Below are positions 5,538-27,370 of a stretch of 64,000 nucleotides of DNA, one piece after another. The stretch comes from Sedimentisphaerales bacterium. GTDB taxonomy: Bacteria; Planctomycetota; Phycisphaerae; Sedimentisphaerales; Anaerobacaceae. Each line of letters opens with the position of its first letter. The stretch's first letter is position 1. The position numbers and the translations under genes were made by a program. The notes under the pieces are model-generated. The model ran no database searches and was not told the origin of the DNA. It saw only the letters and a list, made by a program, of their open reading frames with translations. The stretch lies in contig CAXXXG010000008.1 in the NCBI GenBank assembly GCA_963662565.2, forward strand, positions 3,614 to 67,613, in the 5' to 3' direction.

Positions 5538-5627
5538 GGGGACCTCTGATACCATTGACACGAAATACTTTTGGACCTAAGTTTACCGTGAGTTCATTTG
5601 AGACCTCAGGTAGAGTCTTCTGCTGTA

Positions 5628-7076: not shown

Positions 7077-7149
7077 GTTGACGACTCCTTTCGGGTAAAT
7101 AGCGTCGTTGTCATGCCCTTGTGGGGTTGAAATGAGTGATGAATTTACC

Positions 7150-8259
7150 TTACCCGTGATAAAAAATCAAAACCAGATCGATGACGAATAACAGGACGAT
7201 TGTGGCTTCCATCGTAACCATAAACAGATCCGTACGATCCTGTTGAATCAAGTGGTAAAGGTCGGCCAAGGTACGCTGTTTTTGATCCGTAGTCTTTTGC
7301 CAATCCTCCAGATGAAAACGACTGGATAGGGCCTGATATATACGCGCCAGATGCCAGTCACCGAAAAACTTGGTGATGTTGGATAGTTCGTCACTGAGCC
7401 GAGATAGATCCACGCTGATTTCGCGTAGTTCCTTGTGGATGGCCCGGCCACTACGCAGGTTCAGCCGAGCTACATCACGATAAGCCCGTTCGCTGGCACT
7501 GTCCAACAGGCGATCGTAAATCCCGAGTTCCAGCAGTTGCACATTGGCGACCTCCATGATGTGCAGCACTTCGGCCGCATCGTCCGAATCGCCCAGTATA
7601 AGGGCCGCATCCCAGTCGATGACCACCAGATCCTGATCGTAATAACTCAGATCGTATTGGGTGGACTCGTCGATTTCTTGTTGGGACAGACGCTGGGGTT
7701 CGGGCTCTTCGGTCAGGAGCCCGGCGATGGCACGACGCTGTTGATCCAACCAGTCGGTGGCGGCTAGATCGGAAGACATCGGTTGAAAATGAAAGACGGT
7801 ATAGGCCTCGCTGGGACCCAACTGCTCGACCGGACGGACGCAGTGGGGTCCGAGGTCCTGCATGATCGCCTGCCCCAGGCTCAGAGCGAGTTGGCCGACG
7901 GGACCGTCTTCAGCACCATGGCTGTGGGTGTCCACTAAATGATCCCAGTCCTGTTGAACGAAGGGGACGTGGATGCAGAGGCTGATGGCTCCAATGTTGA
8001 AGACCTTGACCGTGCAAGTGACCTCAAGAGATTGTCCTTCCAGGGTGACTTTCTGGTCGGGCAAATGCACCAGGGCCGGTCGATAGAAGAAGGGTTGGCG
8101 AGGACTGCGTTTGGTCGTGCACAGGTTGTACTCCTGCACGGTTCGACCCAGCAAGGTGGTCAGCGAACCACGTTTCATATCGTAGGCGACATCGAATGCA
8201 TAGATGTAAACGATACTGCCGTTGTAACGTTCCAGCGAATGGTTGGATGGGGTGTTCAT
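7150..8259 (-). CDS. DUF155/RMD1-like protein with C-terminal TM helix
   Basis: The pattern (VYIYAFDVAYDM, VKVFNIGAISLCIH, long helical region, terminal TM) resembles the YagE/RMD1 family. Starts 15 nt after the upstream ligase gene. Confidence 0.4.
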   Translation of the reverse strand: MNTPSNHSLERYNGSIVYIYAFDVAYDMKRGSLTTLLGRTVQEYNLCTTKRSPRQPFFYRPALVHLPDQKVTLEGQSLEVTCTVKVFNIGAISLCIHVPFVQQDWDHLVDTHSHGAEDGPVGQLALSLGQAIMQDLGPHCVRPVEQLGPSEAYTVFHFQPMSSDLAATDWLDQQRRAIAGLLTEEPEPQRLSQQEIDESTQYDLSYYDQDLVVIDWDAALILGDSDDAAEVLHIMEVANVQLLELGIYDRLLDSASERAYRDVARLNLRSGRAIHKELREISVDLSRLSDELSNITKFFGDWHLARIYQALSSRFHLEDWQKTTDQKQRTLADLYHLIQQDRTDLFMVTMEATIVLLFVIDLVLIFYHG

Positions 8260-8274
8260 TGTTGTTCAGATTCT

Positions 8275-9825
8275 TTATATGGACGAGGATGGGGTCATTG
8301 TTTTGGTCCAAATCTGTTTGGGATCTCCATGATCATAGAAATCGACAACCTCGGCTTCGAGGATGTACCCGAGTCCACGATAAAAGGCTTGAGTGTTGTG
8401 ATAATCCGATCGTCCGGACGTTTCGATGACTACCCGATGGCCACCATGGGTTTCAATGTGATGTTCGGCATGTTCCATCAATATTCGTCCCAGACCTCGT
8501 CCCTGGTGCTCGGGTGCCACACCGATCCAGTAGATATCCCAGGTACTTACCGTACAGGGGGTTGGGCCGCAACAGATCCATCCCATGGCCTCGTCGTTTT
8601 GGCAGGCGACCCAGGATTGATAGTGTCCCTGCGGGCCGGTAGCATGGGCCTCGTCCAGAACTTCGCAGGCGATGGTCAGTTCGTTGGGGCGAAACAGATC
8701 TGTACGGGTCAAGGCTGACAGAACGGTTTCTCGATCGCCGGATTGGCTGCGACGAATGGTGATATCCCCAACGGAAACGGGAGGAGGAGGGGCGATTGGA
8801 GATTTCAGACGAGGCAGGTGCTCAAGGGCGTTGTAGAGACACAGGCGAATGAATTCGTGGTAGCCGATGTCACGGGCTGCCAGGGCCGCGGCAAAACCGG
8901 CGTCTGGGGAGATGTCGGGATTGGCATTGACCTCCAACACATAGGGGGACAGCTCTGCGTCCAAACGAAAATCCACACGGCAATAATCCAGGCATCCTAA
9001 GGCCCGACAAGAGGCAACGGCCAGTTCACGGACACGACTTTCGACCAGCACCGGTAACGGCGCGGGAATGATGCGCGGGGTGTGACGATACTCGAAAGAA
9101 TCCTCCAGCCACTTGGCCTCATAGCCCACGATGCGGGGACGATCCGGAGTAAAGGCGGAAAAGTCGATTTCCGCCAAGGGCAGGACCTGAGCCTCGTCGT
9201 GTCGCCAGAGTACCGAGACATTGAGTTCCCGGCCCTCGATATACTGTTCGATCAAGACCGGCTTGCCCAGGGTTTGATGCAAATGGCGGACTCGTTGTTG
9301 CAGGGCCTTACCGGCTGTCGGGATCACACTGTCACGGTCGATGCCCTCACTGGCATCCGTCCCCACGGGCTTGACGATATAGGGGCCGGGAAAAAGGTCG
9401 GCTTCATGGATAAGGTGGTTGGGACTGACACGAATGGCCCGCGGACAGGGGATGTCGGCGGCCCGTAGCACAGCCTTACTCTTCCATTTGTCGAGGCTCA
9501 GCAGCAGTCCGGCAGTACTGTTGCCGGTACAGGCTTTCCCCATCGCGGTGCACAGGGCCGGAATCCAATTGGCCTGTTCCGGATTCTCGGGAAAGCCTTC
9601 CACCAGATTAAAGACGACATTCTCCCCGGCACAGGCCAGGGCGTCCGGAATATGTTGCAGGTTATCTACGCCCACGGAACGCACCGGGACATGCAACTTG
9701 GCACAGGCCTTGGTTACGGCTGCGACTTCCTCCAACACACCGGCCTCACTCTCGGCAAATCCTCCCGCTGCTTGACCGGTTGGACGATTGTACAGAATCA
9801 GCACGCCTTTGATAATGTCGAGCAT
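8275..9825 (-). CDS. D-Ala-D-Ala-ligase-like ATP-grasp fused to a C-terminal GNAT acetyltransferase
   Basis: N-terminal Ddl-type ATP-grasp: DKWKSK, YIVKPVGTDASEGI, IEQYIEGRELNVSV, RVDFRLD..YVLEVNANPD. C-terminal GNAT: WIGVAPEHQGRGLGRILMEHAE. An alternative GTG start lies at 9804. Confidence 0.8.
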   Translation of the reverse strand: MLDIIKGVLILYNRPTGQAAGGFAESEAGVLEEVAAVTKACAKLHVPVRSVGVDNLQHIPDALACAGENVVFNLVEGFPENPEQANWIPALCTAMGKACTGNSTAGLLLSLDKWKSKAVLRAADIPCPRAIRVSPNHLIHEADLFPGPYIVKPVGTDASEGIDRDSVIPTAGKALQQRVRHLHQTLGKPVLIEQYIEGRELNVSVLWRHDEAQVLPLAEIDFSAFTPDRPRIVGYEAKWLEDSFEYRHTPRIIPAPLPVLVESRVRELAVASCRALGCLDYCRVDFRLDAELSPYVLEVNANPDISPDAGFAAALAARDIGYHEFIRLCLYNALEHLPRLKSPIAPPPPVSVGDITIRRSQSGDRETVLSALTRTDLFRPNELTIACEVLDEAHATGPQGHYQSWVACQNDEAMGWICCGPTPCTVSTWDIYWIGVAPEHQGRGLGRILMEHAEHHIETHGGHRVVIETSGRSDYHNTQAFYRGLGYILEAEVVDFYDHGDPKQIWTKTMTPSSSI

Positions 9826-10841
9826 AAAGCCTCCGGATACCGGGCACAGGCACTGGTGATAATGCGGTCTATCAGGACTTCATAGGCCAACCCCTCCTGC
9901 GTGGCGATCATGGGCAGGTCCGAGTGGGTCGGATGCAGGCCGGGCAGGGGATTGATTTCGATAAAGCAGGGACGACCGTTATGATCGAGACGGATGTCTA
10001 CCCGTCCGGTGTCACGACATTCGAGAGTGCGATAGCTGGCCAGGGCCAAGGCCTCGACCTCCTGACGTAACGGTCCGGTGGGCATGGGAAAGTAACGGAC
10101 ATAGGATTCGCACTGTTCCTTGACTTCATAGGAATAGTCCTGGGCCGGGGCATCCGGGGCGATGGCAAACTCCAGGGTTCCCAGGACAGCCGCATCTGAA
10201 CCAGTCCCCAGGATCGCGGTGGTGAATTCGCGACCGGGCAGGTACTCTTCCACTAATACCGGTTGTTGAAAACGCCGCAGCAGTGCAGTCGCCACCTGAT
10301 CCAGTTGGTCCGGATGGTCCAGACGGGATAAATGGTCCACTCCTTTACCCGTGCCTTCGGCCAAAGGCTTGGCAAAAAGTGGGTAGGTCAGATCGATGTC
10401 ACCCAGTTCCGAAGATTGGGTCACCACCTGGAAACGAGCGGTAGCCAGACCGGCCTGTTGAATCAGTCGCTTGGTCATGGCCTTGTCCAGGGTCAGGGCG
10501 CAGACCAGGGGATCGGAGAAGGTGTAAGGAATTTGGTAGAGTTCCAGTAAGGACGGCACCTGGGCCTCACGCGAGCGGCCATGGAGTCCTTCGGCGATAT
10601 TGAATACCAGGTCCCAGCGTTTCCCCTTGACCAGTTTTTCGGCCAGGGAGCGGGCATGACCGATACGCACCGGTCGATGGCCCAGTCCGTCCAGGGCCTG
10701 CTCGATGGCCTCGATGGTCGCGGCCGAATCGAATTCCGCCACCTGTTCATCAGTGTAACCCTGGGCCAGGTAATCGTCGCGTAAATCGTAGACCAGGCCG
10801 ATGGTCAGTCCGGTGTTGCTGTGTGTATTGAGTGTCGTCAT
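9798..10841 (-). CDS. D-Ala-D-Ala-ligase-family ATP-grasp enzyme
   Basis: LDKAMTKRL, PLFAKPLAEGTGKGV, VEEYLPGREFT, GRVDIRLDHNGRPCFIEINPLPGL. 4-nt overlap with the upstream gene. Confidence 0.8.
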   Translation of the reverse strand: MTTLNTHSNTGLTIGLVYDLRDDYLAQGYTDEQVAEFDSAATIEAIEQALDGLGHRPVRIGHARSLAEKLVKGKRWDLVFNIAEGLHGRSREAQVPSLLELYQIPYTFSDPLVCALTLDKAMTKRLIQQAGLATARFQVVTQSSELGDIDLTYPLFAKPLAEGTGKGVDHLSRLDHPDQLDQVATALLRRFQQPVLVEEYLPGREFTTAILGTGSDAAVLGTLEFAIAPDAPAQDYSYEVKEQCESYVRYFPMPTGPLRQEVEALALASYRTLECRDTGRVDIRLDHNGRPCFIEINPLPGLHPTHSDLPMIATQEGLAYEVLIDRIITSACARYPEALCSTLSKAC

Positions 10842-12583
10842 GATTTCACCTCGGTAAATTCATGGGCTAGTGCCTTGGCCATGCCATGGAAAAAGGCAGG
10901 TGCGCCACGGCGCAGATTGCGTAGGCTGTATCCCCCCTCCTGGACCACCAGTGTCGGCAAACGTAGGTCGCCGATCCGCTGGCCTATTTGACGCAGAGAT
11001 GTGGCCGTGAGGACGAACGAACCGGTGGGGTCGCCCTTCATGGTGTCGAATCCGATGCAGACCACCAGGAAGGTGGGTGCGAAGCGGACGATTTGTTTGA
11101 GGGCCTTGTCCAGGGTCTGGAGATAGAGCGTTTCGTCGGTGTTCTCGGGCAAGGGAAAATTCACATTAAATCCTGCACCCGACCCTTGACCGGTTTCGTC
11201 GCTGAACCCACTGAAATACGGATACGAATGGTTGGGGTGGCCGTGAATGCTGATCGTCAGCACGTCGGAGCGTTCGTAGAAGATGTCCTGGGCTCCATTG
11301 CCGTGGTGATAGTCAATGTCGAGCATAGCGACCTTGCCCTGGGCGCTGAGATAGTGCGCGGCAATGGCGGCGTTGTTGAAGTAACAAAATCCGCCGAAGG
11401 TGCGTCGCTCGGCATGGTGACCGGGCGGGCGGCACAGACTGTAGGCCACGCGTCGACCGTGCAGCATTTCCTCGGCCCCGGTCAGGGCGATATCCACGGC
11501 CTGGCGGGCGGCCTGGTAGGCGTTGCGGTCCAGGGGCGTGAAGGTGTCGATGCAGTAGTAACCCGCACGCACGGCCAGTTCCTTGGGCCGTCGCTCGGGC
11601 CGCCGAATGGGAAATACGTAGGGATAGACCGGACCCTTGTCACTGAGTTTTTCGCAGACCACTTTCAGGTAGGTCACGAAATCGCCGGCATGGACGTGTC
11701 GCAGGTGGTCCTCGCCATAGTGACGGGGCTTGATGGGATCGAACAGACCCGTGGGCTGCAAGGCCTGTTCCAGGGCTCCGACCCGAGCGGGTCGTTCCAC
11801 GTAGCCACGATCCTTAACGTGATGGATCGTGTGCAGATCGCCCGAGACCAGGGCAAAGGCCTTGACCCGATGGTCCTTGTGTTGAGTGGGTGACTCGGCA
11901 GTGTGGTAGCGCGGATCGCGGAGCCGGACCGGATTCTCGATCACGCTCTCGACAACCCGCTCGATATAGTCGGGCGGGACGATGTGGCCATACTTACGCT
12001 TGAGGATGATCCGCATGGCCGCGCGACACTCGGATCGCTTTAATGGCTTGCCACTGCCCAGATCGTCGTAAAGCAAATACGGAGCCGGATCGTCGTCGAT
12101 GGGGGTCTCGAATTCGGTGTTGATGATGGGACGCAGACCGTACTGTTCATAGAAGGCCAGATGTTTCTGGTTTTCCTTTAACAGCTTGGCGTCCTTAACG
12201 ACCTCAGGGTCGTCAGGCAACACCTCCATGTAGAGCCCGCGAGAGCCCTGGCTTTTGAGGTATTCCTGGGTGGCCTCGAACAAGGCGCTGCCGATCCCGC
12301 GTCCACGTCGCTCCCCGATTGTGGCCAGGAAGTCCAGCAGGCTGCTATTGATCTCCGGGAAGTGAATCACCAGAGAAAAGCCGGTGACCTTACCCAGCGA
12401 GGTCTCGCTGACCAGCAGGATGGTCCGGTAGCCAAACTTGAAGGGATGGTCCAGCAATTCGGGGATCTTGTCCGCATAGTCGGCCACGGCCCCAAAGTTA
12501 CGTCGGAAGATGTCCTGGGTCTGGCGGATGCGTTCCCGATCGATGGGAAGAACCGTACCATAGACCCGTTGAATCAGAATCAT
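10838..12583 (-). CDS. GNAT acetyltransferase fused to an HDAC/acetylpolyamine-amidohydrolase-type deacetylase
   Basis: N-terminal GNAT: ATIGERRGRGIGSALFEA. C-terminal Zn-deacetylase motifs: CRPPGHHAE, MLDIDYHHGNGAQDIF, GFDTMKGDP, VQEGGY. Confidence 0.85.
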   Translation of the reverse strand: MILIQRVYGTVLPIDRERIRQTQDIFRRNFGAVADYADKIPELLDHPFKFGYRTILLVSETSLGKVTGFSLVIHFPEINSSLLDFLATIGERRGRGIGSALFEATQEYLKSQGSRGLYMEVLPDDPEVVKDAKLLKENQKHLAFYEQYGLRPIINTEFETPIDDDPAPYLLYDDLGSGKPLKRSECRAAMRIILKRKYGHIVPPDYIERVVESVIENPVRLRDPRYHTAESPTQHKDHRVKAFALVSGDLHTIHHVKDRGYVERPARVGALEQALQPTGLFDPIKPRHYGEDHLRHVHAGDFVTYLKVVCEKLSDKGPVYPYVFPIRRPERRPKELAVRAGYYCIDTFTPLDRNAYQAARQAVDIALTGAEEMLHGRRVAYSLCRPPGHHAERRTFGGFCYFNNAAIAAHYLSAQGKVAMLDIDYHHGNGAQDIFYERSDVLTISIHGHPNHSYPYFSGFSDETGQGSGAGFNVNFPLPENTDETLYLQTLDKALKQIVRFAPTFLVVCIGFDTMKGDPTGSFVLTATSLRQIGQRIGDLRLPTLVVQEGGYSLRNLRRGAPAFFHGMAKALAHEFTEVKS

Positions 12584-13932
12584 TCGTAGGCCTCTGTGTC
12601 ATTGTCCGGGCCGCAGCAGGCACGGCGTCGATCCAGACGCACGGCCCGGTCGGGCTGGATGTGACTGTGGGCTCCGGAGGCCACATGCCAGACGCTGGGG
12701 GCGGCACCCTCGGCGGGGCTGACTATGGGGTCTTCGAAGCGGCTATGCGGTTCGGGGTAGGCGATCAGCATGCCTTCGTAGTTGCGAAGGACCGTGTGCG
12801 TGGGACTCTGGGACACCACGTAGGTCGGCAGCACGGGAATCTTTCCGCCGCCGTGCGGGGCATCGACCACAAAGGTCGGGATGGCCAGACCGCCCACGCG
12901 GCCGCGCAGGTATTCCATGATCTCCATACCCTTGGTAACGGGAGTACGGAAGTGCTCCACACCCCGAACCAGGTCACACTGGTAAAGGTAATAGGGACGC
13001 ACCCGCATACGGACCAGGCTGCGGCAGAGCTGCTCCTGGATGTGCGGATGGTCGTTGACTCCCCGCAACAGGACCGACTGGTTACCCAGAGGGATGCCCG
13101 CGTCGGCCAGGCGAGTGCAGGCTTCGATCGATTCGGGGGTGATTTCGTTCGGGTGGTTGAAGTGGGTGTTGATCCAGACCGGATGGTATTGACGCAGCAT
13201 CTGACAGAGTTCGTCGGTGATGCGTTGCGGCAGGACCACGGGCATGCGCGTACCGATGCGGATAATCTGTACCGACGGAACACTCCGCAGGTGCAGTAGG
13301 ATCGTCTCCAGCTTGTCTGTGGTCATGGTCAGGGGATCGCCGCCCGAAATGATCACGTCCGAGACGTCCGGGTGCCGAGTCAGGTAGTCGACCACCTGAT
13401 TGAGTCGTTGACGGCTGATGCTGTTTTCTCGGGTTCCGGCGACGCGTTTACGCGTACAGTGACGGCAGTACATCGAACACATGGTGGTGGCGATCACCAG
13501 GGCACGGTCCCCATAACGGTGAATCAATCCCGGAACCGGCATATCGCGACATTCCTCCAGGGGATCGGAACTGAGAAACGGCGGATCGATCAGTTCGTCC
13601 AGTTGCGGAACCGCCATCTGAAACACCGGGTCGGATGGATCGGCCGATCGGATCAGGGAGGCATAGTAAGGGGTGATCGCCATGGGATACTTGCCGATGA
13701 CCGGAGACAGGTCGGAAGAGGCCTTCAGGGCGGGAAAGAGATTTAGCAGTTGCGGAACCGTTCGAATACGGCTGCGGATCTGCCAGCGCCAATCATTCCA
13801 TTCGGGATGACGTACGGGGGCGGGGATCAAAGTCGAAGACTGGAGGCAGACCGGTGGAGGTTCGTCGTCGGCACTTGTCCGCGCGACCGACGTCAGTACG
13901 GGATTACCTCCTTTCTGGAAATTATGATTCAT
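12580..13932 (-). CDS. KamA-family radical-SAM lysine 2,3-aminomutase (paralogue 1)
   Basis: [12 protein letters not shown] radical-SAM cluster, [45 protein letters not shown]. Has N- and C-terminal extensions. Confidence 0.9.
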   Translation of the reverse strand: MNHNFQKGGNPVLTSVARTSADDEPPPVCLQSSTLIPAPVRHPEWNDWRWQIRSRIRTVPQLLNLFPALKASSDLSPVIGKYPMAITPYYASLIRSADPSDPVFQMAVPQLDELIDPPFLSSDPLEECRDMPVPGLIHRYGDRALVIATTMCSMYCRHCTRKRVAGTRENSISRQRLNQVVDYLTRHPDVSDVIISGGDPLTMTTDKLETILLHLRSVPSVQIIRIGTRMPVVLPQRITDELCQMLRQYHPVWINTHFNHPNEITPESIEACTRLADAGIPLGNQSVLLRGVNDHPHIQEQLCRSLVRMRVRPYYLYQCDLVRGVEHFRTPVTKGMEIMEYLRGRVGGLAIPTFVVDAPHGGGKIPVLPTYVVSQSPTHTVLRNYEGMLIAYPEPHSRFEDPIVSPAEGAAPSVWHVASGAHSHIQPDRAVRLDRRRACCGPDNDTEAYE

Positions 13933-14092
13933 GGATCAAATCCTTATCTTAAGAAAATAGAATACCGTTCGAGCAAACGCTCTCACAATGACGGGATGTA
14001 GTTCCTCTCCGAGGTTCACACCGATCGTCGGCACGAATATTCGGGATACCTGAGCACTCTCACCTTAAAGTTGTCAATCAACAATGGCTGAG

Positions 14093-14121
14093 GATATAGT
14101 ACGTTTTATTCGGCAGGTCAA
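14093..14121 (-). promoter_or_regulatory. candidate sigma-70 promoter for the kamA-side operon
   Basis: On the minus strand: TTGACC (14121-14116), 17 nt spacer, TATATC (14098-14093). Implies a leader of about 150 nt to the ATG at 13932. Confidence 0.35.
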
Positions 14122-14161
14122 TCACGAAAAAACAAAAAAACAGAAAAAAAACATTTGGCTG

Positions 14162-14189
14162 TTGACGTTACTGTAAAACAAGCTATATC
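14162..14189 (+). promoter_or_regulatory. candidate sigma-70 promoter for the C39/RimK-side operon
   Basis: TTGACG (14162-14167), 16 nt spacer, TATATC (14184-14189). Preceded by an A-rich tract at 14126-14150. Confidence 0.35.
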
Positions 14190-14250
14190 TAGCGCGCATA
14201 ATATTCCTTTTGGTGGACAAACCGCGTCATGAAAGGATCGTGGTTGACTC

Positions 14251-14974
14251 ATGAGAACGACACTGACATTGGAAATTTTACCACAACCGGACGACACCAC
14301 CTGTGGCCCGACCTGCCTGCATGCCTTGTATCGTTACTTTGGTGAGACCGAGGATCTGTCTGAGGTCATCCGGGAGGTGCCGTCACTGCAAGGTGGGGGA
14401 ACACTGGGTGTCATGCTGGCCAATCATGCCCTGGCCCGCGGCTATCAGGCCACGATCTATACCTACAATCTGCTCATCTTCGATCCGACCTGGTTCGCCC
14501 CCGGTATTATTCTGACCGAGAAGCTGAGTCAGCGACTGGCCGTCACTCAAGACCGCAAGCAACGTCGGGCCTTGGAGGCCTATCTGCACTTCCTGGAACA
14601 AGGAGGAACCCTCTGCCTGGAGGATTTGACACGCTCGCTGTTACGTCGTTTTTTAAATAGCGGACGTCCCATCCTGACCGGGCTCAACTCGACCTTTCTC
14701 TACCGTACCATGCGGGTCTACGGCGACGACATGGTCGATGACGATATCCGTGGGGAGGTGGTCGGACACTTTGTCGTGCTCTGTGGTTACGATCGAGAAA
14801 AAAAAAACCATTCTGATTGCCGATCCCTACAGCGGCAATCCTTATTCTGCCGATCGCATGTATGAAGTTCCTATCGATCGTGTCATCGGTGCCGTTTTCC
14901 TGGGCGTAATGACCTACGATGCCAACTTTTTAATTATCGAGCCCAAGCGGCAACGAAAGGCCCTTGATTCATGA
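14251..14974 (+). pseudogene. C39-like cysteine peptidase, interrupted by a +1 frameshift in an A10 run
   Basis: DDTTCGPTCL (Cys) and GHFVVLCGYD (His). The reading frame moves from frame 1 to frame 2 at A10 (14798-14807); removing one A gives ...YDREKKTILIADPYSGNPY... The stop overlaps the next ATG (ATGA). Confidence 0.7.
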
Positions 14975-16433
14975 AAATACTGCTAGTGGTCTCTAATGCC
15001 AAAAAATGGCCCTTGAATATCCCGGACTGCGAGGTGGTTGCGGCCCGCAAGTATCTGACCGAGCCGGTCTTCTCCCATCTGACAGGTGTGCGGGTCTTCA
15101 ACCTGATGTGTCCCTGCCGTTACCAGAGCCAAGGCTACTACGTGTCCCTCTTGGCCGAGGCCCGCGGCCATAAGCCCGTGCCCAATATCACCACCCTGCG
15201 GGACCTTTACACCCCGGCCATGGTTCGTATGACCAGTGCGGCCCTGCAAGACTCCATCCAAAGCAGTTTGCAGGGCATCAAGTCGGACCGCTTCGAATTG
15301 AGTTTATACTTTGGCCGCAACCTGGCCAAGCGATACGACAAACTCTGTCGTGAGCTATTCAATCGTTTCCACGCCCATTTCCTGCGGGCCATGTTTGTGC
15401 GGGTCAAGGGACAGTGGACCCTACAGAATATCAGCCCCATCAGCATCAACGAAGTACCGGACAGTCACTACCGCTTTGTGGAAGAGGCGGCCAACGACTA
15501 CTTCACCCACGCGGGCTATCGTCAAAGGAAACTCCAAACCTTCCGCTACAGCCTGGCTATCCTGCACCAACCCGGTGAAAAGATGCCCCCTCCAATGGTG
15601 CAGCCCTCAAGAAGTTCGTCAAGGCCGGTCACAAACTGGGCCTGGACGTTCAGTTCATCACCAAGGACGACTTCGGTCGTCTGTCGGAGTTCGATGCCCT
15701 CTTCATTCGCGAGACCACTAATGTCAACAACCACACCTTCCGCTTCGCCCGTTATGCCGAGGCCGACGGTCAGGTGGTAATCGACGACCCCCAGTCCATC
15801 ATTCGCTGTGCCAATAAGGTCTTCCTGGCCGAGTTACTGGGGCATCAACGCATCGCCACGCCCGAGACCATGATCGTACACAAGGACAATGTGGACCTGA
15901 TCCGCCACACCTTGGGCCTGCCCTGCGTACTCAAGCAGCCGGACAGCAGCTTCTCCATCGGCGTCAAGAAGGTCACCGAGGCCGATGATCTGGAACACGA
16001 AGCCCTGGCCATGCTGGAGAAGTCAGAGCTGATCATCGCTCAGGCCTTTTTGCCCACCGAGTTCGACTGGCGCGTGGGCATCCTGGATCAAAAGGTCCTG
16101 TACGTCTGCCGCTATTATATGGCCGAGAATCACTGGCAGATCATCAAGCGGGATGCCAAGGGCCGCAAGGAAGAAGGCAATGCCGACACCCTGCAACTAC
16201 CGGATGTCCCGGAAGAGGTCCTCAAGATCGCCCTGCGTTCCACCGCTCCCATCGGACGTGGGCTCTATGGCGTGGACATCAAACAGGTGGGCAGCAAGTT
16301 CTACGTCATCGAGGTCAACGACAACCCCAGCATCGACGCGGGCGTGGAGGACGCGGTCCTGCAGGACGACCTCTACCAACAGATCATGGCCGTGTTCCTG
16401 CAACGCATCGAACAACGCAAGGCCGTGGTCTAA
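14971..16433 (+). pseudogene. RimK-like ATP-grasp ligase with RLAN-type N-terminal domain, interrupted by a -1 frameshift in a C5 run
   Basis: The N-terminal domain matches the RimK-like ATP-grasp N-terminal (RLAN) pattern. After ATGCCCCCTCC (15583-15593) homology continues in another frame (PSNGAALKKFVKAGHKLGLDVQFI...DALFIRETT...VVIDDPQSIIRCANKVFL...IEVNDNPSID). Confidence 0.75.
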
Positions 16434-16445
16434 GGATCCTTCAGC

Positions 16446-17669
16446 ATGAGCAAAACATCACTCCACCTCTTCGAAGGCTACGGCCTGGAACTGGAATACA
16501 TGATTGTGGACCGCGATACCTTTGAGGTACGCCCCATCGCCGACTGGCTACTGGCCCAAGTCGGCCCCCAGGGTACCCGCGAGGTAGAACAGGGGCAACT
16601 GTGCTGGTCCAACGAACTGGCCCTGCATGTCATCGAACTCAAGGGCAACGGCCCGGTGGCGGACATGACAACCCTGGCCGACCCTCTACAGCGTGACATT
16701 GCCCGTATGAACGAGCTGCTGGCCGCCCAGGGGGCCTGCTTGATGGGCTCGGCCGTACACCCCTGGATGGATCCCGATGCCGACTCTCGCCTGTGGCCCT
16801 TTGAGGATGCCCCGATTTACCAGGCTCTGGACCGCATCTTCGGTTGTCACGGTCACGGCTGGTTCAACCTGCAATCGGCCCACCTGAATCTGCCCTTTGC
16901 CAATGACGAGGAATTCGCCCGCCTGCATGCGGCCATTCGCCTGGTGCTGCCGATCATTCCGGCCCTGGCTGCGGCCTCGCCGTTTTTGGATGGGGTTGAC
17001 ACCGGCCTGTGGGACGCCCGTCTGCATGTCTACAGCCAGCACTGCAACCGCCTGCCTGCGGCCATTGGCAAGGTCATTCCCGAGCCAGTCTCCAGCGAGC
17101 AGGAATACCAGGACACCATCCTGGAGCCGCTGTATCAATTGCTGCGTCCGCTGGATAAAGAAGGCACCCTCTGTTACGAATGGAGCAATGCCCGTGGTGC
17201 CATCGCCCGCTTCGAACGTAACGCCATCGAAGTCCGCCTGATCGACGTGCAGGAACATCCCGGCATGGATCAGGCCGTGGTCGGGGCGGTGGCAGCGGCC
17301 ATCCGCCTGCTGACCGATCAGGCTTGCCAGGACAAGGACGCCATGAACGCTCTGTCCTGTGTGCGTTTGCGCAAGATCCTGGACGAAGCTATTGCCTGGG
17401 GCGAACAGGCCCAGGTTACTGACGATGATTTTTTGCGTCTTTTGTGTGGTTCGGATCATCCCCGGTCCGCCCAACAGGTGTGGCGGGATATGATCTACCG
17501 CTGCTCGGATTTTGCGGGTCCGGCCCGTGCAGGGGTTGAACAACTCCTTACACAGGGGACCCTGGCGACGCGATTGCGTCAGGTCACTGGCCCGGTCACC
17601 GGGGAGTCCTTGCACAGGACCGCACAGCGATTATGTCAGGCCTTGGCACGTGGGGAAATGTTGGTGTAG
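16446..17669 (+). CDS. GCS2-family carboxylate-amine ligase (glutamate-cysteine ligase family 2 / YbdK-like)
   Basis: GLELEYMIVD, ELALHVIELK, GMGSAVHPW and HLNLPF pattern of the GCS2 family. 407 aa. Confidence 0.7.
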   Translation: MSKTSLHLFEGYGLELEYMIVDRDTFEVRPIADWLLAQVGPQGTREVEQGQLCWSNELALHVIELKGNGPVADMTTLADPLQRDIARMNELLAAQGACLMGSAVHPWMDPDADSRLWPFEDAPIYQALDRIFGCHGHGWFNLQSAHLNLPFANDEEFARLHAAIRLVLPIIPALAAASPFLDGVDTGLWDARLHVYSQHCNRLPAAIGKVIPEPVSSEQEYQDTILEPLYQLLRPLDKEGTLCYEWSNARGAIARFERNAIEVRLIDVQEHPGMDQAVVGAVAAAIRLLTDQACQDKDAMNALSCVRLRKILDEAIAWGEQAQVTDDDFLRLLCGSDHPRSAQQVWRDMIYRCSDFAGPARAGVEQLLTQGTLATRLRQVTGPVTGESLHRTAQRLCQALARGEMLV

Positions 17670-17710
17670 TGTCACGACCGTGGCATAACTCTCCGTCGGA
17701 GTGAACAAGC

Positions 17711-18217
17711 ATGTCTTGGAAATGGATTTGGGATATCAGCCCACTGGATTACCACTCGATCCTCTGTGTCGTAGCCGGCGCCGCCTTTGTCGGTCTCGAA
17801 CGCCAACTGATGGGGAAACCTATTGGTATCCGTACCAGTTCACTGATCAGTTTTGGAACCTATATTTTTGTGGCGATGGCACAGTCGATCATCAGTGAGC
17901 AAATGGACCCATCCCGTATCATCGGCCAAATCATCACAGGGATCGGCTTTTTGGGTGCGGGTGTAATGTTTTCCCAGAATGGATCCGTGCAAGGCGTCAC
18001 ATCGGCAGCGGCGATTTGGATCTTGGCGGCAATCGGTGCCGTTGGCGGGCTGGGATATCCCCATCTCAGTGTGAAGATCGGAATTCTGGCTGTTTTATTG
18101 TTGGTGGGGATCGAAAAGGTCGAAAGAACCTTCACCTTTATGCAGCGTGGTGTGCATCGTCGAGTGCAGCAGTATCGGGACAGATCTCCCGATAAAGCGA
18201 AACAGGCAAACAAATAA
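17711..18217 (+). CDS. MgtC/SapB-family membrane protein
   Basis: GAAFVGLERQLMGKPIGIRTSSLISFGT, ITGIGFLGAGVMF, AAAIWILAAIGAVGGLG. Confidence 0.8.
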   Translation: MSWKWIWDISPLDYHSILCVVAGAAFVGLERQLMGKPIGIRTSSLISFGTYIFVAMAQSIISEQMDPSRIIGQIITGIGFLGAGVMFSQNGSVQGVTSAAAIWILAAIGAVGGLGYPHLSVKIGILAVLLLVGIEKVERTFTFMQRGVHRRVQQYRDRSPDKAKQANK

Positions 18218-18228
18218 GGTAGACATCC

Positions 18229-19017
18229 ATGGAAACGACAGAAGTCCTCTGGACATTAACCGAACAAGAGGGCCCCATTGTGGCCTGTGCCATTCATGAG
18301 GGTCACGACGTCCGACCCGAGGTTGCCATAGGCTTGGCTCTCCATGAAGATGACCGTCTGCGTGAAGAAGATCCCTATAGCGGCGAATGGACCGCTGTGG
18401 GGGACACTCGACTGGTCGTGCATCGTTCACGCTTTGAAATGGATCTCAACCGCCCGCGCGAGCGGGCCGTGTATATCGAGCCGGCCGACGCCTGGGGGCT
18501 GACCGTCTGGCAACAGCGTCCGCCGCAGGCATTGATCGATCGATCGCTGGCCCAGTACGACGATTTTTATGCCATGCTAGGGGACCTGCTCGTTCGCAAA
18601 CAAAAAGAGCATTCTCGACTGGTGGTCCTGGATCTGCACACGTATAATCACCACCGCTTGGGACCGGAGCAGCCCTTTGACGATCCGGCCCTGAATCCCG
18701 AGATCAATGTAGGCACCGACACCATGGACCGGTCGCGTTGGACCCCGCTGGTGGAGCGTTTCATGCAGGACCTGCGTGAGTACGATTTCATGGGACGGTC
18801 CCTGGATGTCCGAGAGAACGTAAAATTCGGTGGCGGTTGGATGAGCCAGTGGATCCACGATCACTTCGGCGAACAGATATGCGTGCTGTCCGTGGAGTTC
18901 AAAAAGACCTTCATGGACGAGTGGACCGGCCAACTCTATCCGGATCTATTGGCAGCCTTTCACTGTGCTCTGGTGGCAACCCTGCCGGGCCTACGAGAAA
19001 GTTTGAAGTCATTGTGA
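18229..19017 (+). CDS. N-formylglutamate amidohydrolase (FGase)-family hydrolase
   Basis: AIHEGH, RSRFEMDLNR, VVLDLHTYNH and SVEFKK resemble the FGase family layout. Confidence 0.65.
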   Translation: METTEVLWTLTEQEGPIVACAIHEGHDVRPEVAIGLALHEDDRLREEDPYSGEWTAVGDTRLVVHRSRFEMDLNRPRERAVYIEPADAWGLTVWQQRPPQALIDRSLAQYDDFYAMLGDLLVRKQKEHSRLVVLDLHTYNHHRLGPEQPFDDPALNPEINVGTDTMDRSRWTPLVERFMQDLREYDFMGRSLDVRENVKFGGGWMSQWIHDHFGEQICVLSVEFKKTFMDEWTGQLYPDLLAAFHCALVATLPGLRESLKSL

Positions 19018-20930
19018 AAAACAATAACTCAATAGAAACCATCACCTCCTATCAGGTGGCCAAGGTCATTGAGCGGTTGTCCGAGGGTAAGCGTATTCGT
19101 CGCAGCTTACCCCGTTCGGGACGGGTGCATATCGATCGTACGCTGCCGTTCATTGTGGTCTGCCGTACAGGCCCACAGGGTTCGGATACCCATACCGCCC
19201 GTTTGGTGCGGGGTGAGGCCTCGTATCTGGTGGCGGCCGGTGACACCGACTTCTATCCGGGCCTCAACAACCTGGTATCCCACGTGGTTGCAACCCTGTC
19301 CAATGAGTGCGCCTCGTTCCTGGTCATCGAAATCTGGGCCGGATCACAAACATCGACCCAACCGATGGCGGATGGCGGGATCGAACCACCGGCATTTTGT
19401 ATCCATGTGCCCAAGAACGATCCGCCCACCCGCACAGTGGAGACGTTGGAGCGATCCTTGCAACGCATCAAGATACTACGTCGAGGTGCGAATGTATGTG
19501 TTGAAACCGTCGAGCAGCCGGCCCCACCTGGGCTCAAACCGTTGCTCTCGGCCAAGGAGGCCCGCCTGCGCAACTGTTTCATGGTGGGTCTGGAGATCCA
19601 GCCTATCTATTGGGATACCGAGACCGGCCAACCCTATCCCCTGGTCCTGCGTAGTCTACACCGTAGTTTGTCTGTGGCCTTCAAGCGGGCGGCCTTTGAG
19701 TTTGCCCGTTTGCGTACACCACGTCGTCCCGCCAACTACCAGGCCCTGGGGCGACGGGCCTTTGTCAAGGCGGTCTGGCAGGTGGACCAGCAACTGGCCC
19801 GCATCAGCCAGTCCTTCGACTATCTCCTATTGGTGACGCCGATCAACGCTGACGCAGCCTGGAAGCGTTTTCACCAGAACAAACATGACAAGAATCCGGT
19901 CTTCTACTATCGCCCTTTGCCCATCGATCCGTCCCTGGTCAAACGGCGGCTCTACCAGGTGCCCATCGAACGTATCGAGGATCCGACCCTGGCCTCGGTC
20001 TTTCGCGAGAAACGCTGTGAGCTGGACCGCATGATCAATCTGTTGACCGAGCGGGGCAAGCCTTCGTTTGTGTACAGCAGCCAGCAACTCTTCGGCGGGG
20101 TTCGCGACGAGTTGCTGACCCTGGCCCGACGTATCCTGGCCAAGGTCTCGCCGCGGGCGCGAGAGGACAAAGGGGGGCCCATGCTGGACGCCCGGGCCTT
20201 TGCTCAACGCGTGCGTGCGGAGTTCGATTATTACCGCAATCAAAGATGCGACATCGATCCTAAGGTTTCCGTTCGTGACGATGTCAGTGGTGTGTTGGTT
20301 TCGCAGGGGCAATTGCTCGTGGGCAGCGGTTTCAAGGTGGCGGCCTCGCGGGTTGAGGGGCTACTTCAACACGAGGTGGGCACGCATGTTTTGACCTATC
20401 TCAATGCCCAGGCCCAGCCCTTTCAACTGCTCTGTTACGGCCTGGCCGGATACGAGCCCTTGCAGGAAGGACTCGCCGTACTGGCCGAATACCTGGTGGG
20501 CGACCTGGGACGCGGACGGTTACGTCTGCTGGCCGGCCGCGTGGTGGCCGTGCATGCCCTAGTGTCCGGAGCGGCCTTTGTAGAGGCCTTTAGGCTGCTG
20601 CACAAGGAGCATGGCTTCAAGCTGCAAACCGCCTTCAATATCACCATGCGGGTCTATCGCGGCGGCGGGCTGACCAAGGATGCAGTGTATTTACAGGGGC
20701 TTGCCTCTCTGCTAGACTACCTCCAAGACGGTGGTGATCTGAATTTGCTCTGGGTGGGCAAAATCGCTGCGGACCATACCTCCATAATGCGGGAGCTGAT
20801 GAGCCGTGAGGTCCTGATTCCTGCACCCCTGCATCCCCGTTATCTGGAATTTGAATCGGCCCAGGCACGCCTGGCAAAAGTGAAGTCAGGCGCAACGCCT
20901 TTGGATCTTATCGAAGGGAAAAGAAAATGA
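19014..20930 (+). CDS. DUF1704 / QEGLA-motif protein, MATCAP-like metallopeptidase
   Basis: HEVGTH (HExxxH) at 20370-20387 and QEGLA at 20463-20477. Start set at GTG 19014, overlapping the upstream stop (GTGA). The ORF is open from 18837 but that part overlaps the FGase gene. Confidence 0.75.
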   Translation: MKNNNSIETITSYQVAKVIERLSEGKRIRRSLPRSGRVHIDRTLPFIVVCRTGPQGSDTHTARLVRGEASYLVAAGDTDFYPGLNNLVSHVVATLSNECASFLVIEIWAGSQTSTQPMADGGIEPPAFCIHVPKNDPPTRTVETLERSLQRIKILRRGANVCVETVEQPAPPGLKPLLSAKEARLRNCFMVGLEIQPIYWDTETGQPYPLVLRSLHRSLSVAFKRAAFEFARLRTPRRPANYQALGRRAFVKAVWQVDQQLARISQSFDYLLLVTPINADAAWKRFHQNKHDKNPVFYYRPLPIDPSLVKRRLYQVPIERIEDPTLASVFREKRCELDRMINLLTERGKPSFVYSSQQLFGGVRDELLTLARRILAKVSPRAREDKGGPMLDARAFAQRVRAEFDYYRNQRCDIDPKVSVRDDVSGVLVSQGQLLVGSGFKVAASRVEGLLQHEVGTHVLTYLNAQAQPFQLLCYGLAGYEPLQEGLAVLAEYLVGDLGRGRLRLLAGRVVAVHALVSGAAFVEAFRLLHKEHGFKLQTAFNITMRVYRGGGLTKDAVYLQGLASLLDYLQDGGDLNLLWVGKIAADHTSIMRELMSREVLIPAPLHPRYLEFESAQARLAKVKSGATPLDLIEGKRK

Positions 20931-21973
20931 AATTAGGATTTCTGGTCAACGACATACAGACCGAACAGGCCGGTTACACCACCACGCGTCTGGCCATGAC
21001 CGCCATCAACCGTGGACACGAGGTGTGGATCATTGGAGCAGGCGACTTTGCCTACAGTGTGGACGAACACATCCATGCTCGCGCCTACCGCGCACCTAAA
21101 TCCAAGTACAGCAACAATAAGACCTACCTGGCCGATTTGCAGGGCCCCAAGGCCAAGCGAGAATGGATCGTGGTCGATGACCTGGACGTTCTCATGCTCC
21201 GCAACGACCCCTCGGCCGACACCGGTGTACGCTCCTGGGCCCAGACCGCGGGGATCATCTTCGGTCGGGCCGCTATGCGGGCCGGGGTCATCGTGCTCAA
21301 CGATCCCGACGGTCTGGCCAAGGCCATGAACAAGATGTACTTCCAGCTCTTCCCTGAAGAGGTCCGCCCCCGCACCATCATCACCCGCGATCGCGATGAG
21401 ATCCGTCGCTTTGCCAAGGAAGAAGGTGGCCACATCATCCTCAAGCCCCTGCAGGGTTCGGGCGGTACAGGCGTGTTCATGGTACGTAAGGACGATCTAT
21501 CCAATATCAACCAGATGGTCGAGGCCGTCAGCCACTACGGCTACGTCATCGCCCAGGAATACCTGCCCGCCGCGGCCGAGGGGGACATCCGTCTGTTCCT
21601 CATGAACGGCCAACCCCTCCGCTACAAAGGCAAATATGCCGCCTTCCGGCGCGTACGTTCCAGCGAAGACATCCGCAGCAACATCCACGCCGGCGGCAAG
21701 CTCGCCCCGGCCGTGATCACCAAAGAACACCTCGACGTCGTGGAAATGGTTCGTCCCAAACTCGTGCAGGACGGCATGTTCCTCGTCGGCCTCGATATCG
21801 TCGGTGACAAGCTCATGGAAATCAACGTCTTCAGCCCTGGTGGCCTCGGCAGCGCCCAAAACTTCGAAAAAGTCAACTTCTGTCACCCCGTCATCGACGC
21901 CCTGGAAAAAAAGGTCGAGTACATGAAGTACTATCGCCGCAACTTCGACAATGTCGAAATGGCGATGCTTTGA
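20927..21973 (+). CDS. glutathione-synthase-like (GshB-type) ATP-grasp ligase
   Basis: MKLGFLVNDI...RLAMTAINRGHEVW N-terminal domain, ILKPLQGSGGTGVF, AQEYLP, EINVFSPGG. ATGA overlap with the upstream gene. Confidence 0.8.
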   Translation: MKLGFLVNDIQTEQAGYTTTRLAMTAINRGHEVWIIGAGDFAYSVDEHIHARAYRAPKSKYSNNKTYLADLQGPKAKREWIVVDDLDVLMLRNDPSADTGVRSWAQTAGIIFGRAAMRAGVIVLNDPDGLAKAMNKMYFQLFPEEVRPRTIITRDRDEIRRFAKEEGGHIILKPLQGSGGTGVFMVRKDDLSNINQMVEAVSHYGYVIAQEYLPAAAEGDIRLFLMNGQPLRYKGKYAAFRRVRSSEDIRSNIHAGGKLAPAVITKEHLDVVEMVRPKLVQDGMFLVGLDIVGDKLMEINVFSPGGLGSAQNFEKVNFCHPVIDALEKKVEYMKYYRRNFDNVEMAML

Positions 21974-22636: not shown

Positions 22637-22647
22637 TGCAGGCTTCC

Positions 22648-24414: not shown

Positions 24415-24633
24415 AAATCTGATGTAAACTCAACGGTCAAAATTACCACCCTAAAAGACGGGGTGTTCCATCTCTGCACAGTCATGCCTTCGGGCTTCTG
24501 CCGTTTAGGTCACCCGCTCCTGCCGTAAATGCCTTAACAACCGATCCGATAGAGGCTTACACAAAACAGCTATGCCATGGCACAACAATTGCAATTGATC
24601 AATCTTAAGAGTAATTGAAAGGTACTTCACATT

Positions 24634-25023: not shown

Positions 25024-25112
25024 ATGAATACCGCGTTGCGTCCTTGTGATGATGGCCGGACGTGACGCATTGAACGACCTCCCAATGGGTAAATTTAAGA
25101 TCAATCATTATT

Positions 25113-27365: not shown

Positions 27366-27370
27366 GGATC

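Follow-up and report, generated by a model that had tools for sequence, protein, structure and literature searches.

A divergent 13.7-kb block of amide-bond genes in a Sedimentisphaerales genome is best explained as three juxtaposed cassettes

Does a compact run of amide-forming and amide-cleaving genes that diverge from one intergenic spacer encode a single pathway, or do separate gene sets happen to lie side by side? We address this question for a block of 13.7 kb (positions 8275 to 21973) in a stretch of 64,000 nucleotides from a Sedimentisphaerales bacterium of the Planctomycetota (GenBank assembly GCA_963662565.2, contig CAXXXG010000008.1; hereafter the window, to which unprefixed positions refer), in which genes for a KamA aminomutase, five ATP-dependent ligases, and four amidohydrolases are transcribed outward from a spacer of 318 bp. 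A sequence-only reading of this DNA had taken the block for one system arranged around the shared spacer. Our survey of foreign loci indicates that the block is very probably a lineage-specific juxtaposition of three self-contained, widespread cassettes that do not travel together: cassette L on the left (KamA, a GNAT::deacetylase fusion, a Ddl-like ligase, and a Ddl-like::GNAT fusion) and, on the right, cassette R1 (a C39-like peptidase, an RLAN::RimK ligase, a GCS2 ligase, and an FGase-family amidohydrolase) and cassette R2 (an FGase, here shared with R1, a MATCAP-like peptidase, and a GshB-like ligase). As a unit, the apparent supercluster is a local accident of gene order. Taken together with the functions proposed below, the three-cassette account is the best overall explanation we can offer, with a probability of roughly 0.5.

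The case for separate cassettes comes from their neighborhoods elsewhere. For R1, the RLAN::RimK protein served as the anchor, one genome was taken per species, and 80 loci with 10-kb flanks were searched with the window proteins as tblastn probes; the loci span at least ten phyla, among them Planctomycetota, Proteobacteria, Bacteroidota, Verrucomicrobiota, Nitrospirota, Acidobacteriota, and Spirochaetes. Cultured hosts of R1 include Blastopirellula marina DSM 3645, Thiobacillus thioparus DSM 505, Pontibacter spp., and Planctomicrobium sp. SH527. The C39-like gene was present in 69 of the 80 loci and GCS2 in 75, the order C39, RimK, GCS2 on one strand recurred in 66, and, of the 45 foreign loci tested for it, 41 had an FGase as the gene after GCS2. 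None of the 80 loci carried KamA, Ddl, Ddl::GNAT, or MATCAP within 10 kb, and no GshB match in them fell outside the anchor's own RimK domain. The flanking genes were unrelated from locus to locus, with 138 Pfam families among 107 neighbors, each seen no more than three times.

Cassette L behaves in the same way. This survey was anchored on the Ddl::GNAT protein and covered 80 loci on metagenome contigs, where a locus "with room" is one whose contig is long enough to hold the gene in question. The Ddl gene lay directly upstream of Ddl::GNAT in 55 of the 57 loci with room, KamA lay upstream of Ddl in 36 of 38, and RLAN::RimK, GCS2, MATCAP, and AblB were each absent from all 80. The GNAT::deacetylase fusion is an optional member, a homolog being found between KamA and Ddl at four of the 80 foreign loci, with a fifth cut off before KamA. 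Around L, the commonest neighbor was a TetR gene (9 of 79 loci), a B12-radical-SAM gene occurred in 7 of 79, and there was no transporter or other conserved gene; in contigs L008 to L011 the cassette stands alone. For R2, three foreign loci were inspected (L092, L093, and L094), and in all three a 348-aa GshB-like partner follows the MATCAP-like gene with the same 4-nt overlap; an FGase gene precedes the MATCAP-like gene in two of them, and neither RimK nor GCS2 is nearby. The right-hand genes, previously read as one operon, are thus themselves two cassettes. Within the window, L follows the conserved order with the GNAT::deacetylase gene inserted, and R1 follows its conserved order with an MgtC gene inserted.

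According to the rival account, the divergent operons form one pathway, coregulated from the spacer, that assembles and trims a single peptide of β-lysine and glutamate. All of the enzymes have compatible chemistry, and three assemblies of this lineage preserve both the adjacency and the divergent orientation. Contig L001, whose RLAN::RimK is 79% identical to that of the window, also has a stand-alone HDAC-family gene 2.6 kb downstream of R1 (16143-17180 of that contig; 37% identical to the window deacetylase domain over partial length), which hints at a recurring link between R1 and a deacetylase. However, the three supporting assemblies are ∼99% identical in DNA and hence count as one observation, and the full arrangement is kept only in such contigs (L004 and L007). 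Relatives whose RLAN::RimK is 79 to 81% identical lack both the left operon and the MATCAP/GshB pair, and each cassette is self-contained elsewhere. The sequence-only reading had itself named a failure to find the two operons side by side in related genomes as a result that would refute it, and this is what was seen: they were neighbors in 0 of 80 foreign loci in each direction, and none of the 160 anchored foreign loci combines L with either right-hand cassette or R1 with R2. We consider the single pathway very unlikely.

Our domain assignments rest on Pfam and NCBIfam profile searches of the window's open reading frames (ORFs; Table 1). They reproduced every earlier domain call but one: the 369-aa protein downstream of L, which had been called DUF155-like, has no DUF155 match even at E<=1. 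On the left the matches were LAM_C/Radical_SAM, GNAT with Hist_deacetyl, and Dala_Dala_lig_C in two genes, one of them fused to GNAT, and on the right Peptidase_C39_2, RLAN, RimK, GCS2, MgtC, FGase, MATCAP (also TIGR02421), and GSH-S_N/GSH-S_ATP (PRK12458). The tally of five ligases, one aminomutase, and four hydrolases was correct, and the ORF listing returned the same gene order, strands, and divergent layout around 13933-14250, as well as left-hand overlaps measuring 4, 4, and 28 nt, with a gap of 15 nt after them. The AT-rich spacer had been given its right length and has 41.8% GC versus 57.8% for the cluster. The ATGA/GTGA overlaps reported for the right-hand genes hold at FGase/MATCAP (GTGA) and MATCAP/GshB (ATGA), and at C39/RLAN provided that a frameshift is repaired, whereas the other junctions are gaps of 11 to 41 nt. 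As had been stated, the locus has no nonribosomal peptide synthetase (NRPS), mur, or precursor-peptide gene, and the spacer holds no convincing small ORF; the accompanying claim of no gshA context overlooked GCS2, which is a GshA-type family.

Table 1. Positions of the cassette genes, the spacer, and selected neighboring genes in the window
Feature	Position	Strand	Evidence or remark
Membrane TrkA_C (RCK_C) protein	4731-5537	+	Pfam TrkA_C, transmembrane profile
Secreted OsmY-like protein, six BON domains	5628-7076	-	BON x6, OsmY model match, signal peptide
369-aa protein, one C-terminal membrane helix	7150-8259	-	Hydropathy; 15 nt downstream of L
L gene 3: Ddl-like ATP-grasp with C-terminal GNAT acyltransferase	8275-9825	-	Pfam, both domains
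L gene 2: Ddl-like ATP-grasp ligase	9798-10841	-	Dala_Dala_lig_C E=3e-27
L optional gene: GNAT fused to APAH-type (HDAC-fold) deacetylase	10838-12583	-	Hist_deacetyl E=3e-74, weak GNAT matches
L gene 1: KamA-family radical-SAM aminomutase	12580-13932	-	Pfam LAM_C + Radical_SAM
Divergent intergenic spacer	13933-14250	.	318 bp, 41.8% GC
R1 gene 1: cytoplasmic papain-like Peptidase_C39_2 Cys peptidase	14251-14974	+	Pfam; ORF as sequenced ends at 14865
R1 gene 2: RLAN::RimK-like ATP-grasp ligase	14971-16433	+	RLAN E=6e-43, RimK E=2e-9
R1 gene 3: GCS2 (YbdK/GshA-type) carboxylate-amine ligase	16446-17669	+	GCS2 E=4e-28
MgtC-family membrane protein, between GCS2 and FGase	17711-18217	+	MgtC E=2e-27
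FGase-family amidohydrolase, type B	18229-19017	+	FGase E=2e-20
R2: long-form MATCAP/DUF1704 (TIGR02421 "QEGLA") zinc peptidase	19014-20930	+	MATCAP E=2e-88
R2: GshB-like ATP-grasp ligase (PRK12458 subfamily)	20927-21973	+	ATGA overlap with MATCAP-like gene
Sigma-54 response regulator, ablA, Na+/solute symporter, ablB	26001-31513	+	Pfam, TIGRFAM

The spacer itself offers few signs of regulation. An Rfam scan gave no match in it at E<=1, so no riboswitch or RNA element was found, and the scan of the whole window returned only three tRNAs (42861-43753, minus strand). One sigma-70-like site lies in the spacer at 14071-14100 on the plus strand, at chance level, as were the sigma-70 promoter and terminator scans overall. 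Control by sigma-54 from the nearby activator was rejected, as the spacer has no consensus site and matches across the window number 35 against 34.9 expected; one perfect consensus (TGGCACAACAATTGCA) occurs at 24578-24593, upstream of small ORFs at 24634-25499, the pattern being at chance level window-wide. A precursor peptide was likewise rejected, the spacer ORFs being short and unsupported and no conserved small gene adjoining R1 or L.

Catalytic residues were checked in the four ATP-grasp ligases, KamA, the deacetylase, both GNATs, the MATCAP-like peptidase, and the C39-like family, and they are intact in every enzyme examined. Loss of the ATP-grasp residues, which would have spoken against the sequence-only reading, was seen in none of the four.

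The KamA of cassette L aligns with structure 2A5H (E=8e-140) and keeps the CxxxCxxC and GGGK motifs and the region of the pyridoxal phosphate lysine. Because it also keeps both lysine-binding Asp residues (YQCDL and FVVDAP), which hold the lysine ε-amine, its expected substrate is lysine, not glutamate; glutamate 2,3-aminomutase was rejected on the same Asp pair and on a score far below the cut-off of the Glu-mutase model. The enzyme is therefore a predicted lysine 2,3-aminomutase making β-lysine. Its score against TIGR03820, the AblA equivalog, is 505.7 bits, below the cut-off of 525.4, and since it is 61 to 75% identical to the KamAs of foreign L cassettes and only 46% identical to the canonical AblA of this same window, it is a dedicated paralog.

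The two Ddl-like proteins reach at best 170.5 (the stand-alone protein) and 109.3 bits against the NCBIfam Ddl models, where the cut-off is 243. Both keep the catalytic Arg/Asp/Glu/Asn set (RVD...E-x-N) and should be active as ligases. The stand-alone protein of 347 aa retains GRVDIRLD...FIEINPLPG in alignment with Ddl 4ZQI and has Glu at the position of Tyr216, so its substrates are expected to differ from D-Ala-D-Ala; judged by its model score and this residue, it is probably not a true D-Ala-D-Ala ligase. No mur genes occur in the window neighborhood or in the foreign L loci. The ATP-grasp domain of the Ddl::GNAT fusion is 28% identical to the stand-alone protein, and the fusion has 4225 homologs, mostly in Planctomycetota. 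Acetyl-coenzyme A (acetyl-CoA) motifs are present in both GNAT-containing proteins (RGRGIG at residue 93 of GNAT::deacetylase and QGRGLG at residue 441 of Ddl::GNAT), neither of which matches TIGR03827 (AblB). The GNAT domain of the latter (residues 338-506) matches PDB entry 2R7H, a "putative D-alanine N-acetyltransferase" (E=2e-27); as this entry is a structural-genomics deposit, a solved structure already exists for this uncharacterized type of GNAT. The deacetylase domain aligns with the acetylpolyamine amidohydrolase (APAH) 6PHR (E=9e-76), has the motifs PPGHHA, DxDxHHGNG, GFD, and EGGY, and keeps the His-His pair, the Asp/His/Asp zinc site, and the catalytic Tyr. The 369-aa protein downstream of L has no Pfam match in the library used; the corresponding gene of contig L007 is annotated PF27233 MJ0711_N, and as no homolog occurs at any of the 80 foreign L loci, the protein is an addition specific to this lineage.

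In the route that we propose for L, KamA would turn lysine into β-lysine, the two Ddl-like ligases would attach to it one or two other amino acids, or additional β-lysine, and the fused GNAT would cap an amine using acetyl-CoA. Where the GNAT::deacetylase is present, it might put on or remove an acetyl group on the long-chain ε-amine, either as a protecting group or for turnover. The product would probably be a small intracellular N-acetylated β-lysine peptide, and L would then constitute a three-gene route from lysine to such a peptide.

Since β-lysine is found in several antibiotics, we also considered whether the locus makes a secreted secondary metabolite (an antibiotic or siderophore) or serves in antiphage defense or another conflict. 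The TetR gene next to L in 9 of 79 loci would fit this, as would the gene pair with toxin-antitoxin features immediately downstream of the cluster, where a 40% GC islet at 22121-23841 directly follows the GshB-like gene. However, there are no exporter, resistance, NRPS or polyketide synthase, or tailoring genes, the flanks consist of unrelated housekeeping genes, and the compact cassettes are very broadly distributed and near-universal, unlike strain-specific natural-product clusters. PADLOC models gave no match at E<=0.001 to any of the ten cluster proteins, a result that also led us to exclude an antiphage defense system as a candidate in its own right. Of all the alternatives, this one is the most far-fetched. 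The islet holds a DUF4411/PIN-like gene and a gene for an M78 (IrrE-like) peptidase and looks like an acquired toxin-antitoxin-type pair that marks the right border of the cluster.

As sequenced, two genes of R1 are broken, which the sequence-only reading missed. Its RLAN::RimK gene does contain both domains, but in the window they form two ORFs in different frames (14971-15780 and 15774-16433), and reading the A4 run at 15578-15581 as A5 restores a single 487-aa protein. The C39-like peptidase, for which the Pfam domain was also confirmed, is cut to 204 aa by an A10 run at 14798-14807; as a result, it lacks the conserved Asp191 and no longer has an ATGA overlap with the gene that follows. Contigs L004 and L007 both have A5 at the first site and A9 at the second, and the L004 copy of the C39-like gene is intact, encoding 240 aa with the ATGA overlap. 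The alignment of L004 to the window (99.03% identity over 6.9 kb) contains only two indels, both in these poly-A runs. L007 is 98.9% identical in DNA to window positions 1-17677 and has 35 other indels, mostly of a single base in short base runs, and yet it agrees with L004 at both sites. The simplest reading of these alignments is that the window differences are homopolymer errors, although recent inactivation or slippage may instead have caused the breaks. In L007 itself, most of the indels insert a base into a short homopolymer, and they fragment KamA and GNAT::HDAC; in the public long-read metagenome contigs for this lineage, homopolymers are prone to error.

An intact 487-aa RLAN::RimK protein (P0001) is 99% identical to the rebuilt window protein, which has at least 8000 homologs and belongs to a family with invariant K322, D436, E448, and N450. 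It scores 45.8 bits against rimK_fam (cut-off 143.4) and 24.1 against PRK10446 (cut-off 331); RLAN-bearing proteins form a separate family, for which the NCBI name is "RimK family protein," and the top NCBIfam match of the RimK domain is LysX. An AlphaFold model of the RLAN domain (14971-15573; predicted local distance difference test [pLDDT] score, 87) resembles the ATP-grasp folds of LysX/ArgX, RimK, and synapsin (TMq 0.5-0.57), suggesting that the protein may be a tandem of one degenerate and one active ATP-grasp module. In the C39-like family, Gln12, Cys18, His173, and Asp191 are conserved in 67 to 69 of 69 cassettes. The GCS2 protein falls under every NCBIfam cut-off (59.7 bits versus 176.4). 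A homolog of the MgtC gene occurs in only 3 of the 80 R1 loci, and two close relatives, L001 and L005, have one in the vicinity of R1; MgtC is an accessory gene, not part of the R1 core. The nearest R1 homologs are labeled "Deltaproteobacteria," while R2 homologs, like those of L, are mostly from Planctomycetota.

For R2, the most likely start of the MATCAP-like gene is the GTG at 19014, giving a protein of 638 aa. It scores 297.5 bits against Pfam MATCAP (cut-off 27) and 343.5 against TIGR02421 (cut-off 338.65), placing it in both families, and its HEVGTH and QEGLA motifs align with those of human MATCAP (7Z5G). This long form of about 640 aa has 2696 homologs. Its N-terminal domain of about 285 aa corresponds to 19014-19880; a model of the first 289 residues (pLDDT 83) has a fold of the nucleoside-phosphorylase/hydrolase type, with the N-formylglutamate amidohydrolase (FGase) 2Q7S as its top structural match (TM 0.45), a likeness that is weak and at most suggestive. 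The GshB-like protein aligns with 1GSA (E=3e-37), keeping the ATP/Mg catalytic and loop motifs. It exceeds the PRK12458 cut-off (487.6 versus 408 bits) and stays below those of the GshB equivalogs TIGR01380 (198.9 versus 299) and PRK05246 (217.6 versus 272).

One component links the two right-hand cassettes. FGases near these genes fall into two groups that barely recognize each other, and most R1 cassettes carry type A. The window FGase, of type B, matches the FGases of FGase-MATCAP-GshB loci at 279 to 284 bits and the post-GCS2 FGases of the closest relatives L001 and L005 at 289 to 313 bits, as opposed to no more than 18 bits for the common R1 FGase. By these scores, the type-B FGase is the one element common to R2 and to this clade's R1, and if it serves both, this suggests that their substrates are related.

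We propose that R1 and R2 probably each add residues of the glutamate type to a C terminus and take them off again. The RimK-like, GCS2, and GshB-like ligases would extend a carboxylate with such residues, and three types of hydrolase would act on the result: FGase would cleave acyl-Glu bonds, the MATCAP-like peptidase would be a C-terminal carboxypeptidase, and in R1 the papain-like Cys peptidase might reverse or process the extension. The substrate could be free oligo-glutamyl or γ-glutamyl peptides or the tail of a housekeeping protein. The original idea of ribosome-independent amide-bond ligases paired with amide hydrolases has gained support, and its β-lysine and glutamate chemistry is plausible. 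Overall, the functions assigned to L, R1, and R2 are tentative.

A different possibility is that GCS2 and the GshB-like ligase together produce a γ-glutamyl tripeptide resembling glutathione, which would serve as a thiol or metal buffer and be recycled by the hydrolases; the right half would then correspond to a pathway of a known type. GCS2 is of the GshA type, the GshB-like protein passes the cut-off of a model named "glutathione synthetase" (PRK12458) and keeps GshB substrate-loop motifs, the two genes share a direction of transcription, and MgtC suggests a link to metals. Nevertheless, both proteins miss the GshA/GshB equivalog cut-offs, a C-terminal peptidase in an operon with the synthetase is foreign to glutathione biosynthesis, and the two ligases belong to different cassettes, the 80 R1 loci being without MATCAP and the R2 loci without GCS2. 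This makes a glutathione-like product improbable.

The main rival, if still an unlikely one, is that R1 and R2 modify the C termini of a housekeeping or carrier protein and that L may likewise β-lysylate a protein. Such systems would parallel, in bacteria, the action of RimK/RimB on ribosomal protein S6, that of LysX on LysW, and the work of tubulin tyrosine ligase together with MATCAP. RimK, LysX, and tubulin tyrosine ligase (TTL) are ATP-grasp enzymes that act on protein C termini, and the best NCBIfam match of the RimK domain as well as the fold of the RLAN model point toward LysX. On the hydrolase side, MATCAP is a protein carboxypeptidase whose HExxH and EGLA motifs are kept here, and the C39-like family is a conserved, active-looking papain type that could expose a C terminus. 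RimB and RloA provide a precedent (PMC11957051), and no transporter or export gene is present. Weighing against this is that no conserved gene for a target or carrier lies in or beside any cassette, that GCS2 and GshB members of known function act on small molecules, and that the FGase substrate is a small N-acyl amino acid. The add-and-remove account of R1 and R2 given above leaves room for either kind of substrate.

The surroundings of the block in this genome give hints of a role in salt or ion stress. To the left lie the TrkA_C and OsmY-like genes, which contig L007 has as well, and 6 kb beyond the right end of the cluster lies an abl operon, the known pathway to N-ε-acetyl-β-lysine, which was missed in the sequence-only reading. 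Here canonical ablA (27803-29266) scores 780.9 bits against TIGR03820 (cut-off 525.4) and canonical ablB (30680-31513) 322.5 bits against TIGR03827 (cut-off 205.1); a sigma-54-like site, TGGCATCACCCTTGCT, is found in front of ablA at 27525-27540. Two KamA paralogs thus lie within 16 kb of each other in this genome. From the OsmY-like, TrkA_C, MgtC, and ablA-symporter-ablB genes, we infer that the cassettes of the window have come to lie in a neighborhood related to salt or ion stress, and this clustering together with the type-B FGase suggests a role in handling glutamate or lysine pools under such stress. In a transcriptome of Photobacterium damselae at low salt, a "GshB" gene was up 38-fold and the QEGLA-motif gene adjacent to it 27-fold, which places the two among the most strongly induced genes, and RimK was up 52-fold (PMC10308900). 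The link of the cassettes to salt or ions is nonetheless lineage-specific and circumstantial, and conserved osmotic or ion genes beside R1 in general were ruled out, its flanks being unrelated.

Several related loci have neighbors of a similar kind. In the closest R1 relatives, L005/L006 (1850-9950) and L012 (8313-9272), the genes upstream of R1 include DUF155, GNAT-CN_hydrolase, MgtE, a Na/Ca exchanger, and an SLC12-type amino-acid/cation carrier, and those downstream include MgtC and a Ser/Thr kinase. In the Planctomycetota metagenome-assembled genome of locus L092 (6824-11578), the MATCAP-like/GshB-like pair is followed by a 1138-aa MscK-like mechanosensitive channel, with two HSP20 genes near. 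Farther along the window are genes for a DUF1559 protein with an N-terminal methylation motif, a rhamnulokinase-like protein, rhamnose isomerase, and pectate lyase (38048-38911, 31631-34558, and 49576-50679). Such a DUF1559 protein is typical of Planctomycetota and their relatives, and as a group these genes suggest a host of the PVC group that degrades polysaccharides, in contrast to the "Deltaproteobacteria" label of the nearest R1 homologs.

A bolder version of the functional account would make R1 and R2 a bacterial system for editing C-terminal tails under salt or ion shifts, a forerunner of the tubulin tyrosination/glutamylation cycle, with ATP-grasp and GCS2 enzymes as writers and FGase, MATCAP, and papain-type enzymes as erasers acting reversibly on a housekeeping protein or a free oligo-glutamate pool and so tuning cell physiology; L would then define a new class of β-lysine N-acetyl-peptides widespread in Planctomycetota. 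We regard this as speculative and rather unlikely.

Several considerations weigh against the three-cassette account with its proposed functions. The functions of L, R1, and R2, including all products and substrates, are predictions from sequence. For L, two ligases and one or two GNATs exceed the needs of a simple solute, and in the GNAT::deacetylase fusion one half would seem to undo the work of the other, unless each acts on a different amine. The targets of R1 and R2 could be proteins and not free peptides, and should both frameshifts of the window prove genuine, R1 would be undergoing decay in this strain. Only this clade shows the stress context, since elsewhere the flanks of R1 and L are unrelated genes, and the L loci come mostly from sediment, digesters, and sludge (as judged from contig names only), which does not suggest a salt-specific role. 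Finally, the 2009 amidoligase survey of Iyer, Abhiman, Burroughs, and Aravind, which reportedly defined RLAN and connected ATP-grasp and GCS2 ligases with peptidases, may already describe R1 or R2.

Literature searches with RLAN, DUF1704, QEGLA, MATCAP with ATP-grasp, and the annotation names recovered no functional study of any of the three cassettes, the Photobacterium transcriptome being the only useful item. The searched literature likewise contained no substrate for a bacterial MATCAP and no compound or pathway of the L type, and L appears to be undescribed in the searchable literature. The parts are nevertheless of a known kind, namely, ATP-grasp and GCS2 ligases coupled to peptidases, for which Pfam and TIGRFAM models exist. 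What looked like one exotic 13.7-kb pathway is replaced here by three compact cassettes of three to four genes, each with thousands of homologs, and with the checked residues intact this makes them tractable experimental targets. The locus also carries a caution, that adjacency in one lineage should not be read as a single pathway.

Comparison with characterized systems helps to define what each cassette may do. Cassette L can be compared with AblA/AblB, as both combine a KamA-type lysine 2,3-aminomutase with a GNAT acetyltransferase. The L KamA is, however, a separate paralog under the AblA cut-off, its GNATs are not AblB, and none of the 80 L loci has AblB; because L adds two ATP-grasp ligases, its product should be a peptide and not acetyl-β-lysine itself. 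For such a peptide there are two precedents that follow a similar logic. Ngg, which acts in the synthesis of N-acetylglutaminylglutamine amide (NAGGN), is a bifunctional GNAT and ATP-grasp enzyme, thus joining acetyltransferase and ATP-grasp in one polypeptide to make a small capped intracellular peptide, and carnosine synthase (CARNS1) is an ATP-grasp enzyme that takes a β-amino acid. L differs from both in that its ATP-grasp domains are of the Ddl family and that it has no AsnO-type amidotransferase. APAH is the closest match of the HDAC domain in the GNAT fusion, which has the full catalytic set. APAH acts on long-chain amines that carry an acetyl group, and the ε-acetyl group of acetyl-β-lysine is similar to these; unlike APAH, the predicted L deacetylase is fused to a GNAT and embedded in a putative β-lysine ligase operon.

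On the right, glutathione biosynthesis offers a parallel in that members of the GCS2 (GshA) and GshB families occur in the same orientation, but here they lie in two separately inherited cassettes, miss the equivalog cut-offs, and are each tied to a hydrolase of their own. R2 may be compared with the pair of tubulin tyrosine ligase and MATCAP, as its ATP-grasp ligase is accompanied by a zinc peptidase of the MATCAP family in which HExxH and EGLA are retained. The likeness is one of logic, a predicted addition and removal of a single C-terminal residue; the R2 ligase is of the GshB type and not TTL, its peptidase has an extra N-terminal domain of about 285 aa, and there is no tubulin tail in bacteria. 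The MATCAP family is known from tubulin detyrosination, and the pairing of one of its peptidases with an ATP-grasp ligase is the sole context for it that we found in bacteria. The nearest counterparts of R1 are RimK/RimB in Pseudomonas, a working pair that adds and removes poly-glutamate tails (poly-α-glutamylation of ribosomal protein S6), and the related rlo operon (rloABC) of Pseudomonas aeruginosa, mutants of which have hypo-osmotic phenotypes (PMC11957051). As in those systems, R1 has a RimK-type ligase in an operon with a peptidase predicted to reverse its action, the substrate is probably rich in glutamate, and the R1 ligase matches Pfam RimK. In contrast, the R1 ligase has an additional RLAN domain and fails the rimK_fam cut-off, and its partners are a papain-like peptidase, GCS2, and FGase rather than a retropepsin or 7TM-transglutaminase, no retropepsin of the RimB type being among the conserved R1 partners. 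On this comparison, R1 would extend the add-and-remove idea of RimK/RimB to a much more widespread cassette.

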